Virus record (IMG/VR): IMGVR_UViG_2529292882_000006
Coordinates: 1-29,442 of that record
Length of the DNA stretch: 29,442 bases
Strand: one strand, 5' to 3'
DNA from: a virus
Lineage: Duplodnaviria > Heunggongvirae > Uroviricota > Caudoviricetes
Each line of letters begins with the position of its first letter. Position 1 is the first letter of the stretch. This document shows, piece by piece, positions 27,247 through 29,442 of the stretch. The notes beneath the pieces are model-generated. The model saw only the letters and a list, made by a program, of their open reading frames with translations. It was not told the origin of the DNA and made no database searches. The position numbers were made by a program, and so were the translations under genes.

Positions 27247-28467
27247 GTGATCACGAAACATTGCAGTATTCTGACAAACAGGGGAAAGGCGCTGGAGGCT
27301 GCGTCTGCGGCGGGTGGTGCGCCGGTGGTGCTGGACGGGTTTATGGTGGGAGACGGAAACGGAAATGCCGTCACACCAGAGGCTGGGCAGACAGCGCTGG
27401 TCAGGGAAGTTTATCGCGGCACCATATCACGACTGGCGGTCTCGCCTGATCAGGAAAACCAGTTTATTGCGTATCTTGTACTGCCGGAGGGCGTGGGGGG
27501 ATTTACGGTCAGGGAAGCGGGGCTGCTGACCAGCGATGGTGAACTTTATGCCGTCGGAAGTTGTGCAGCCATTGAGAAACCGGTAAATGGCGTTACCGCC
27601 ACACTGCAGTTCCGGCTGGCAGTAGCAGAAAGTGCGCAGGTTACGCTGAATGTGGCAACCGGAGATGGTCTGTTTCTGCGACAGGACAGGAATCTTTCGG
27701 ATGTGGAAGACAAAGATGAGGCTGTTGAAAATCTCGGGTTAAAACCCACGGTGGACAAGGCAAAAAATGCCGTTCAGCGTGATGGTGACACCATGACCGG
27801 GGAACTGAAAATCCGTGGTGTTAATGCGCTGAGGATTTTCAACGAAGCCTTTGGTCTGATTTTTCGTCGTTCGGAAGAGTGCCTGCACCTTATTCCCACA
27901 CAGGAAAATCAGGGTGAAAACGGCGATATTGGTCCCCTGCGTCCGTTTACCATGAATTTGCGGACGGGTGAGATAACCATGTCCAAAGTATCTGTTGGTG
28001 GTGATTCACAGGTACGTGGTGCGCTGGGTATCGGCGTTCAGAACGCGCTGGGTGGAAACTCAATTGCTTTCGGGGATAACGATACCGGCCTGAAACAGAA
28101 TGGTGACGGCCTGCTGGATGTTTATGCCAATGGTCAGCACGTATTCCGTTTTCAGAATGGCGCGTTACAAAGTAACCGGGCAGTGAATGTTTCAGGGCGG
28201 GTAACACCGTCAGACTACGGAAACTTTGATGCCCGTTACCAGACCAAAACAGGCGGCGTGCAGGATGTGCGTTATGGTTCCGAAATGTATTACAACCCGG
28301 GAGGTAACCAGATATCCTGGACATTTCGCTCACCTTCAGGCCACGGGTTATCCGGTATTAATGTGCAGGAAACCGGAAGTAATTCGGCAGATAACATTGG
28401 CGGCGTGTATTACCGACCGCTTCAGAAACTGATTAATGGTACATGGTATAACGTGGCGAGTGTTTAA
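27247..28467 (+). CDS. Tail fibre protein (P2 gpH-like)
   Basis: C-terminus ...NALGGNSIAFGDNDTGLKQNGDGLLDVYANGQHVFRFQNG...GNFDARYQ...YYRPLQKLINGTWYNVASV parallels the P2 gpH C-terminus. N-terminus ...TPEAGQTALVREVYRG... parallels the gpH baseplate-attachment domain. GGGAG precedes GTG 27247. Confidence 0.8.
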   Translation: MITKHCSILTNRGKALEAASAAGGAPVVLDGFMVGDGNGNAVTPEAGQTALVREVYRGTISRLAVSPDQENQFIAYLVLPEGVGGFTVREAGLLTSDGELYAVGSCAAIEKPVNGVTATLQFRLAVAESAQVTLNVATGDGLFLRQDRNLSDVEDKDEAVENLGLKPTVDKAKNAVQRDGDTMTGELKIRGVNALRIFNEAFGLIFRRSEECLHLIPTQENQGENGDIGPLRPFTMNLRTGEITMSKVSVGGDSQVRGALGIGVQNALGGNSIAFGDNDTGLKQNGDGLLDVYANGQHVFRFQNGALQSNRAVNVSGRVTPSDYGNFDARYQTKTGGVQDVRYGSEMYYNPGGNQISWTFRSPSGHGLSGINVQETGSNSADNIGGVYYRPLQKLINGTWYNVASV

Positions 28468-28469
28468 CA

Positions 28470-29015
28470 ATGTTGCATTTAAAAAATATTACTGCGGGCA
28501 ATCCGAAAACCGCAGAACAATATCAGATGACAAAACAACATGGTATCACCTGGCTTTTTTCGGAAGATGACAAAAACTGGTATGAAGAGCTGAAAAATTT
28601 TGCCAGTGACACCATAAAAATGGTTTACACCGGAGACGGGCGCGTGGCGTGGGTCGGTAAGGATGTGACAGGCATTGAACCCCGTAACGCCAGTGTTATT
28701 GAAGTTCCTGATATTACCGCCAACCGCCGTATTACCGTGCCTGGTTACTGGTTTTACCGCGACGATAAATTTGTCTTCGACTACAAACTTAAAGCGGAAG
28801 ATGAACGCGATGCCCTGTTACAACGGGTCAGCATCATGACCAGCGAATGGGAAAAAGACCTGCTGCTGGGATTAATCAGTGACGAAGACAGGGAGAAGCT
28901 GAAAGCGTACCGCATTTACGCGAAATCGCTGCAGGCGATGGATTTCAGCCCCATCACTGATAAAGCTTCATATAACGCCATTGAATGGCCCGTCTCTCCT
29001 GAAGCCTCTTCCTGA
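28470..29015 (+). CDS. Tail fibre assembly protein (Tfa)
   Basis: 181 aa, immediately downstream of the fibre gene (2-nt gap). Composition and position are typical of Tfa chaperones. Confidence 0.7.
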   Translation: MLHLKNITAGNPKTAEQYQMTKQHGITWLFSEDDKNWYEELKNFASDTIKMVYTGDGRVAWVGKDVTGIEPRNASVIEVPDITANRRITVPGYWFYRDDKFVFDYKLKAEDERDALLQRVSIMTSEWEKDLLLGLISDEDREKLKAYRIYAKSLQAMDFSPITDKASYNAIEWPVSPEASS

Positions 29016-29038
29016 TTTAATTTATCGCGAGAAAAACT

Positions 29039-29442
29039 ATGTCTGTAGTGATATCAGGTGCGCTGATTGATGGCGCAGGCATCCCCATGTCCGGATGCCA
29101 CATAATTCTGAAATCCCGGGTAAACACCTCAGAAGTGGTGATGCGCACAGTTGCCGACGTGGTGACAGGAAACTGTGGCGAGTACTGTTTTAAGGCGCAG
29201 ACCGGAAAATATTGCGTATATCTGAAACAGGACTGGCGCGATGAGTACTGTGTTGGCGACATTGCTGTATACGACGACTCCAGGCCCGGCACGCTGAACG
29301 ACTTTCTGACCGCTCTCGATGAAGGCGACCTGAAGCCGGATGTCGTTAAACGCTTTGAGGAAATGGTGGCGCAGGCGCAGCAGAGCGCGGAAGCGGCAGC
29401 GGAAAGCGAACGACAGGCCGGGCAACATGTCGCTGATGCGCA
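29039..29442 (+). CDS. Second tail fibre gene, Stf-like N-terminal domain (5' partial, runs off window end)
   Basis: Translation MSVVISGALIDGAGIPMSGCHIILKSRVNTSEVV...AVYDDSRPGTLNDFLTALDEGDLKPDVVKRFEEMV parallels the lambda Stf N-terminus (MAVKISGVLKDGTGKPVQNCTIQLKARRN...TVYEDSQPGTLNDFLCAMTEDDARPEVLRRLELMV). No stop before the window end. Confidence 0.7.
   Translation, partial: MSVVISGALIDGAGIPMSGCHIILKSRVNTSEVVMRTVADVVTGNCGEYCFKAQTGKYCVYLKQDWRDEYCVGDIAVYDDSRPGTLNDFLTALDEGDLKPDVVKRFEEMVAQAQQSAEAAAESERQAGQHVADA

Follow-up and report, generated by a model that had tools for sequence, protein, structure and literature searches.

Two fibre genes and two chaperone genes at the right end of a prophage

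The stretch of DNA analysed here, referred to as the window, comprises the 29,442 nucleotides of the tailed-phage record IMGVR_UViG_2529292882_000006 in IMG/VR and derives from scaffold JH768573.1 of assembly GCA_000261385.1. Its right end carries a tail fibre gene of the P2 gpH type (fibre 1), the gene of its chaperone (Tfa1) and the first 134 codons of a second tail fibre gene (fibre 2), whose N-terminal anchor is of the type found in the Stf fibre of phage lambda. The full fibre 2 gene and, behind it, the gene of a DUF4376-type chaperone were read from L006, one of three other assemblies (L006, L007 and L008) that have no gap in this region and agree with the final 10,973 nt of the window at 100% identity; GCA_012532795.1 and GCA_017073715.1 are assemblies with an ungapped copy. 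Two complete fibre-chaperone pairs are present, all four open reading frames (ORFs) are intact and all four genes lie on one strand. Coordinates, gene content and Pfam matches agree with the initial annotation of the window, which had recognised a contractile-tail phage with two adjacent fibre genes of separate lineages. The block and the two baseplate genes that precede it are laid out as follows.

25783..26691, plus strand: gpJ-like baseplate wedge protein, 302 aa (PF04865 Baseplate_J, E 1.5e-25; 40% identity to P2 gpJ, E 1e-60)
26685..27245, plus strand: gpI-like baseplate protein, 186 aa (PF09684 Tail_P2_I, E 5.5e-39; 37% identity to P2 gpI)
27247 (GTG)..28467 (TAA), plus strand: fibre 1, gpH-like primary baseplate tail fibre, 406 aa (PF12571; P2 gpH; PHROG 6859/454/381, tail fibre)
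28470 (ATG)..29015, plus strand: Tfa1, chaperone of fibre 1, 181 aa, gpG/Mu U/lambda Tfa family (PF02413 Caudo_TAP, E 4.3e-22; PHROG 136, E 3e-58)
29016..29038, plus strand: 23-nt spacer from Tfa1 to fibre 2, no terminator
29039 (ATG)..29442, plus strand, open at the window end: first 134 codons of fibre 2, Stf-type anchor (PF08400, 1-134 of 134, E 7.9e-64)
L006:10570-12840, outside the window: full gene of fibre 2, 756 aa (contigs 100% identical over 10,973 nt)
L006:12855-13439, outside the window, 14 nt past the fibre 2 stop: DUF4376 chaperone gene of fibre 2, 194 aa (PF14301, E 2.4e-16)

Fibre 1 and Tfa1 fall into families known from P2 (gpH and gpG) and Mu (S and U). The PF12571 domain (DUF3751) occupies residues 1-136 of fibre 1 (Pfam, E 1.6e-34), and the gene stands directly after the gpJ and gpI homologues. 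BLASTP aligns P2 gpH with residues 34-138 (38.5% identity, E 2e-17), 160-305 (41%, E 6e-27) and 315-406 (gpH residues 592-669; 38%, E 4e-13). Together with a C-terminus of the P2 H/Mu S kind and a PF02413 chaperone gene, this places fibre 1 in the P2 gpH/gpG family and bears out the gpH-like fibre with a P2-type N-terminus and a Tfa chaperone that had been described at the outset. The P2-type C-terminal region of that description stands in so far as P2 gpH aligns there, but the best solved-structure match, over residues 183-405, is Mu gpS (5yvq, E 1e-20). Residues 1-136 are a backbone-specific attachment domain, and from about residues 150-182 onwards the protein is a mosaic shaft and tip common to other phage backbones; its homology to phiP27, Rac-SA53 and pPE4, in DNA and in protein, begins at residues 148-182. 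Tfa1 shares 38.6% identity with P2 gpG and the same value with Mu U. Unlike P2 with its single fibre, the window phage has two complete fibre genes in tandem. The spacer from Tfa1 to fibre 2 is exactly 23 nt long, as first reported, and recurs with the same length and nearly the same sequence in phiP27, Rac-SA53, pPE4 and strain P393-F10. A terminator-like site was sought between Tfa1 and fibre 2 and none was found; the arrangement of the two genes is consistent with co-transcription.

Fibre 2 opens with a domain that matches lambda Stf, as the initial annotation had stated: PF08400 is covered over its full length and identity to residues 1-134 of lambda Stf is 42%. The scores of these matches, and of those for fibre 1 and Tfa1, lie well outside what chance would give. 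The anchor consists of a beta-sandwich (residues 1 to about 95), after which a coiled coil begins, with a helix from residue 100 in the model. Its structural matches by sequence are lambda Stf residues 1-94 (9e7m, E 9e-18) and, over residues 1-194, the collar spike of phage XM1 (7kjk, E 6e-10). An AlphaFold2 model of the 134 residues present in the window (predicted local distance difference test score, pLDDT, 81) had the same two structures as its top Foldseek matches, 9e7m (template modelling score 0.85, normalised to the target) and then 7kjk (rank 2, probability 1.0); among the weaker matches were a neck fibre, from myophage A-1(L), and a tail-tip chain, from siphophage Bxb1. The first 71 residues of the anchor hold five cysteines in this lineage (C20, C46, C50, C58 and C71), and the consensus line suggests that cysteine is held across the subfamily at only two of these positions. 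The shaft is a helical coiled coil of about 240 residues, rich in Ala, Gln and Glu, followed by PF03406 at residues 343-382 (E 1.8e-15). The C-terminal 281 residues have no Pfam or PDB match, and searching solved structures by sequence with the fibre 2 tip and the DUF4376 protein returned nothing usable. Fibre 2 is Stf-like in anchor and shaft only. It has the PF08400 anchor and the coiled coil with PF03406 repeat of the lambda Stf family, and it lacks the gpV/gpM docking partners as well as the gp37-like His-rich tip with its Tfa (PF02413) chaperone. No homologue of gpV or gpM is found among the annotated genes; the tail genes of the window specify a sheath, a tube of the FII type and a baseplate of the P2 type. 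The protein encoded behind fibre 2 has the marks of the DUF4376 chaperone family, namely a C-terminal DUF4376 domain and a gene directly after the fibre.

Why does the window stop within fibre 2? An assembly gap, not a biological end, closes it: position 29442 meets a scaffold gap of 100 N in JH768573.1 (L005:10974-11073), and the contigs on its two sides have 95 nt in common. A second gap in this scaffold (L005:12198-12552) conceals about 442 nt of the fibre 2 gene, and the rest of the fibre 2 region is 99.6-100% identical to the ungapped copies. In L006, L007 and L008 the intact 756-aa fibre and the DUF4376 gene are followed by tRNA-Ser(tga) and the hyaA/hya operon, and the prophage stops about 140 nt past the second chaperone gene, at the tRNA. 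This is an E. coli prophage integrated at tRNA-Ser(tga) beside hyaA, and the two genes mark its end. The early stop or truncated remnant that the initial annotation had named as a possible outcome downstream was not encountered; three identical assemblies hold the intact ORF and the chaperone. When the 134-aa anchor fragment is used as a query for homologues, nearly all matches are partial proteins at contig ends. The anchor sequence occurs at up to 8 places per genome, and the likely reason for such frequent contig breaks at this gene, and for the partial state of most database copies, is that several prophages in one genome carry the same anchor sequence.

Distribution of the block and conservation of the fibre 2 anchor

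The order fibre, Caudo_TAP chaperone, 23-nt spacer, Stf-type fibre and DUF4376-type protein is found in phiP27 (L54-L57), in Rac-SA53 (tail1-4) and in pPE4, and a 95% identical prophage in E. coli P393-F10 shows it too. The junction between Tfa and fibre 2 is present at a coverage of at least 80% in 70 of 5,426 complete E. coli genomes and partially in 223. Source names of anchor homologues also include Shigella, Salmonella, Citrobacter, Yersinia and Cronobacter. The dual-fibre layout is already known: it entered GenBank with phiP27, and annotations of E. coli genomes include it as a matter of routine. An arrangement that occurs in phiP27, Rac-SA53 and at least 70 complete E. coli genomes, with a synonymous divergence (dS) of 0.25-0.8 among the lineages that keep it, is old and widespread, and the recent modular swap envisaged in the initial annotation therefore does not hold.

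The Stx2e phage phiP27 (NC_003356), whose genome was reportedly described by Recktenwald and Schmidt in 2002, is a close counterpart in this part of the genome, with the same four genes in the same order (L54-L57) around the 23-nt spacer. Its anchor is 99.3% identical to that of the window, its fibre 1 82% identical from residue 155 on and its Tfa 75% identical. In contrast, phiP27 has a Mu-like tail without detectable similarity to the sheath, tube and baseplate proteins of the window, its fibre 1 carries another N-terminal domain, and its fibre 2, at 490 aa, is shorter and ends in a different tip. A BLASTP comparison of the window ORFs with phiP27 and Rac-SA53 (E <= 1e-5) found no common head, neck, sheath, tube or baseplate protein. 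The comparison yielded only lysis genes, fibre 1 from residues 155-182 on (57-82% identity), Tfa (41-94%) and the anchor (97-99%).

How many kinds of phage carry this anchor? The 80 IMG/VR loci of a backbone survey seeded with the anchor comprise 41 of the Rac-SA53 type, 18 of the phiP27/Mu-like type, 6 of the P2-like type of the window, 4 of a second P2-like lineage, 4 lambdoid loci and 7 remnants or unassigned loci. Identities to the anchor within the phage collection are distributed bimodally, with four records at 95% or more (phiP27 twice, pPE4 and Rac-SA53) and the other 302 below 60%, the latter being, among the matches listed, siphovirus fibres, mostly lambdoid Stf at about 44%. Fibre 2 and its chaperone form a portable module that closes the tail operon in four to five different backbones, lambdoid siphoviruses included. 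Four P2-like loci (L083, L085, L086 and L088) keep the classical order J-I-H-G-FI-FII-E-T-U-D and carry the Stf-type fibre and the DUF4376 gene 25 nt after gene D, about 6 kb from H-G; their homology to the window begins exactly at the fibre 2 ATG. The lambdoid loci have the order gpJ, Lom, lambda-type Stf and then the second Stf-type fibre.

Several of the surveyed loci are of interest in themselves. The lambdoid siphovirus prophages L037, L071, L082 and L089 carry tandem Stf-type fibres whose anchors belong to subfamilies about 45% identical to each other. In L037 the first Stf is a lambda-type protein of 958 aa with a self-cleaving chaperone-like domain at its end, and immediately before the second fibre stand the decayed remains of a Tfa 3' end. 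A single genome holds three prophages (L051-L053; IMGVR_UViG_2925825570_000002/3/4) that have three baseplate types and the same fibre block: fibre 1 is short and ends in a lambda-Stf/T4 gp37-like His-rich tip, Tfa is of the lambda type, and fibre 2 has 757 aa. Co-resident prophages clearly share a fibre cassette here. The record PP818812.1 (L004), named 'Actinobacillus phage vB_Apl-pPE4', has, over the roughly 14.5 kb compared, the gene order and most of the coordinates of the E. coli Rac-SA53-type prophage, and its fibre region is 95% identical in DNA to the E. coli window. Because gene order and fibre DNA match E. coli prophages, the stated Actinobacillus host of pPE4 looks doubtful.

Purifying selection on the anchor is strong: its near-identity is a matter of constraint and not only of recent transfer, since the ratio of nonsynonymous to synonymous divergence (dN/dS) is low at sizeable dS. 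In a set of 40 distinct anchor sequences (727 pairs) the median dN/dS is 0.12, with a range of 0.01-0.17 across lineages at dS up to 0.8; between the window and phiP27, dN is 0.003, dS 0.25 and dN/dS 0.013. Sliding windows along fibre 2 show residues 1-145 to be near invariant and the coiled coil and tip to be replaced or highly divergent. Identity in the last 200 residues of fibre 2 is correlated with identity in the first 65 residues of the DUF4376 protein (rho 0.79) and does not track that of its C-terminal domain (rho 0.09). This co-variation of the tip fits a role of the DUF4376 protein as the cognate chaperone of fibre 2.

Proposed joint display of the two fibres on the virion

Based on these observations, we propose that the four genes are a host-recognition block whose two fibres are displayed together; we consider this explanation likely as a whole, with a collar at the neck as its less certain part. 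The N-terminal domain of fibre 1 would plug into the gpJ/gpI baseplate, and the gpG/U-type chaperone would serve this fibre. Fibre 2 would be an accessory fibre of 756 aa, with the DUF4376-type chaperone serving its tip. Both fibres would be produced together and fitted to one virion, so that the phage would have two receptor specificities at once, not by turns as in Mu or P1. The anchors of fibre 2 may form a ring, or collar, around an exposed, narrow, tube-like part of the particle. Dual receptor specificity, already suggested in the initial annotation, is made plausible by the intact ORFs, the cognate chaperones, the purifying selection on the anchor and the hypervariable tip. There is a precedent among lambda-like phages, with Stf plus J in Ur-lambda (PMC12617516) and in Gifsy-1 (PMC12312913), and lambda Stf is an accessory fibre that speeds adsorption beside the primary receptor binder (PMC12617516). 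DUF4376 proteins have been shown experimentally to be fibre chaperones in Alteromonas phage V22 (PMC7289586). In this myophage the protein is gp27 (PMC7289586, PMC10579305), encoded, like the one here, by the gene right after the fibre; its similarity to the enterobacterial protein is, however, confined to the C-terminal domain, and for the enterobacterial protein a chaperone role is predicted.

Could the two fibres instead be expressed in turn, by means of a Gin/Pin-type invertible segment lying just past the window? Mu, P1 and e14 gain two fibre specificities through such a segment, with related fibre and Tfa genes, and the initial annotation had raised the prospect of one here. No significant match to Mu Gin was obtained by tblastn in the window, in the 10 kb downstream in L006, in L001-L003 or in 79 of the 80 related loci, the lone match being an unrelated 32-aa fragment about 7 kb downstream in L052. 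The inverted repeats found are imperfect and 16-21 nt long, with none longer than 21 nt; the four genes are co-oriented, and about 140 nt separate the second chaperone gene from tRNA-Ser, where the prophage ends. Unlike Mu, which obtains its two specificities by inverting a DNA segment, the phage of the window has no invertase. The inversion model of Mu, P1 and e14 fails on every defining feature, and, short of an invertase encoded elsewhere in the genome that would act in trans on unrecognised sites, we regard an alternating host range as scarcely credible for this phage.

Where, then, would fibre 2 be attached? In Ur-lambda, a collar made of Stf residues 1-94 in 12 copies surrounds the gpV/gpM junction on the bare tube (PMC12617516). 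In the Vibrio myophage XM1, the neck carries 18 homologous domains, seated on its head-completion and tail-terminator proteins (PMC10457771). Because the lambda site, the junction of tube and distal tail, is buried under sheath and baseplate in a contractile-tail phage, the neck, as with XM1 gp40, is by analogy the most likely place for a ring, and we favour it only moderately. For the same reason the initial label of a 'baseplate or tail attachment domain' needs qualifying: with the gpV/gpM site covered by sheath and baseplate in a myovirus, the lambda mode of attachment is not simply transferable. Each of the two solved systems resembles the window in part. Ur-lambda Stf (9e7m; PMC12617516) shares a homologous anchor, a trimeric coiled coil and a PF03406 repeat region. 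It differs in that its 12-mer collar encircles a non-contractile tail, whereas the equivalent position in the window phage lies under a sheath and no gpV/gpM homologue is present; moreover, fibre 2 does not have the gp37-like His-rich tip of lambda but an unrelated one, and its chaperone is of the DUF4376 type, not the Tfa type. XM1 gp40 (7kjk; PMC10457771) is an extra receptor-binding protein of a contractile-tail phage, with a homologous, Ig-like N-terminal domain and a long coiled coil. Its identity to the anchor is, however, 24%, its distal part is tailspike-like, and the neck attachment shown for XM1 is a putative one here.

A number of points weigh against the displayed pair of fibres and its neck collar. 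Expression of fibre 2 and its incorporation into virions are predicted from sequence, for the window phage as for phiP27, and the intactness of fibre 2 in the window's own genome depends on the identical sister assemblies, with about 442 nt hidden. The co-variation of tip and chaperone may reflect the physical linkage of adjacent DNA, not function. The anchor is nearer to lambda Stf (42-45% identity) than to XM1 gp40 (24%), and homology thus does not favour the neck. Finally, the anchor is 97-99% identical across phages without any detectable common head, neck, sheath, tube or baseplate protein, and this conservation across unrelated structural proteins makes any backbone-specific docking site awkward, the neck included.

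This last point is the strength of a different arrangement, a branched fibre in which the N-terminal domains of fibre 2 dock on the trimeric primary fibre or on the complex of fibre 1 and Tfa. The model is the T5-like phage DT57C, in which LtfB is attached to LtfA. A module of this kind could work on any backbone that has a primary fibre, and it does lie downstream of the primary fibre gene in every backbone; three anchors per trimer would suit a three-fold fibre shaft. Of its virion proteins, the window phage shares with phiP27 and Rac-SA53 only Tfa, the anchor and fibre 1 in its distal two-thirds, and all loci whose anchor is at least 94% identical have the middle region of fibre 1 at 69-99%, except for one remnant. 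Yet the anchor is still 87-88% identical where its supposed partner has been replaced: in L051-L054 and L061 fibre 1 is short, with a lambda-Stf-like His-rich tip, and is paired with a different Tfa, and in L037 the primary fibre is the 958-aa lambda-type Stf with the self-cleaving chaperone domain. The module lies 6 kb from H-G in one P2-like lineage, and both solved structures have the domain ringing the tail axis, not a fibre. A control is also instructive. The Stf anchors of lambda and Stx2a_1447 are 81% identical, while the known partners of these anchors are far less alike, the gpV proteins being unrelated and the gpM proteins only 45% identical; high conservation of an anchor thus does not imply a conserved partner. 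The comparison with phiP27 and Rac-SA53 taken by itself points to a branched fibre, but the loci with a replaced fibre 1 and Tfa and the gpV/gpM control undercut this reading, and we hold it to be unlikely. It would be less probable still that fibre 2 is a passenger, left over from recombination with lambdoid phages and either not incorporated or serving only as a reservoir for recombination. The lambda docking site (gpV/gpM) is without a counterpart here, fibre 2 is split or truncated in L066, L082, L084, L087 and L090, and the Tfa remnant upstream of the module in L037 shows that it moves by recombination. However, a relic is hard to reconcile with an intact ORF and cognate chaperone in the window lineage, an anchor dN/dS of 0.01-0.17 at dS up to 0.8, a 23-nt junction conserved without a terminator, and the presence of the module in all close relatives of this backbone that were found; we consider it quite improbable.

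Prophage context and implications

The remainder of the prophage is a hybrid: its regulation and head genes are lambdoid and its contractile tail is P2-like. Positions 1601-21453 contain lambdoid genes for DUF968, RusA, a Q antiterminator and a DNA methylase, as well as a holin and GH108 endolysin cassette, a lambda-type terminase gpA and portal, a ClpP-capsid fusion and a gpFII-like neck protein. Neck proteins are assigned to positions 16808-17182, 17161-17538, 17560-18243 and 18260-18829. The holins (6304-7123) and a 115-aa ORF (8476-8823) are 89-97% identical to L28, L29 and L33 of phiP27; the endolysin (7125-7670) has no phiP27 match and shares 86% identity with its Rac-SA53 counterpart. 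Between the lysis genes and the terminase, positions 9248-10057 on the plus strand encode a 269-aa protein that matches the K88/F4 fimbrial subunit family over its whole length (PF02432, E 6e-55). No usher or chaperone genes lie near it in the window, and it looks like prophage cargo (a moron).

What are the implications of such a block? The literature searched contained no study of the function or location of this second fibre, and the backbone-independent conservation of its anchor may be the one aspect that deserves follow-up: a domain that clamps the naked tube in lambda is nearly unchanged (dN/dS about 0.01-0.1) where a sheath hides the tube and the structural proteins are unrelated. We tentatively entertain, with some doubt, a broader idea, namely that the pair of fibre 2 and DUF4376 protein is a backbone-independent plug-in accessory fibre, whose anchor would either assemble by itself into a collar or bind the primary fibre, and would do so on virions whose necks, tails and baseplates are unrelated (P2-like, Mu-like, Rac-SA53-type, and lambdoid siphoviruses that have a lambda-type Stf of their own). 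If this were true, any temperate enterobacterial phage could gain a second receptor specificity through two genes at the end of its tail operon. The place and mode of attachment of the anchor would reveal the modular way in which temperate phages acquire a second receptor specificity, and phage engineers would gain a handle, possibly independent of the backbone, on which further receptor-binding proteins could be mounted.

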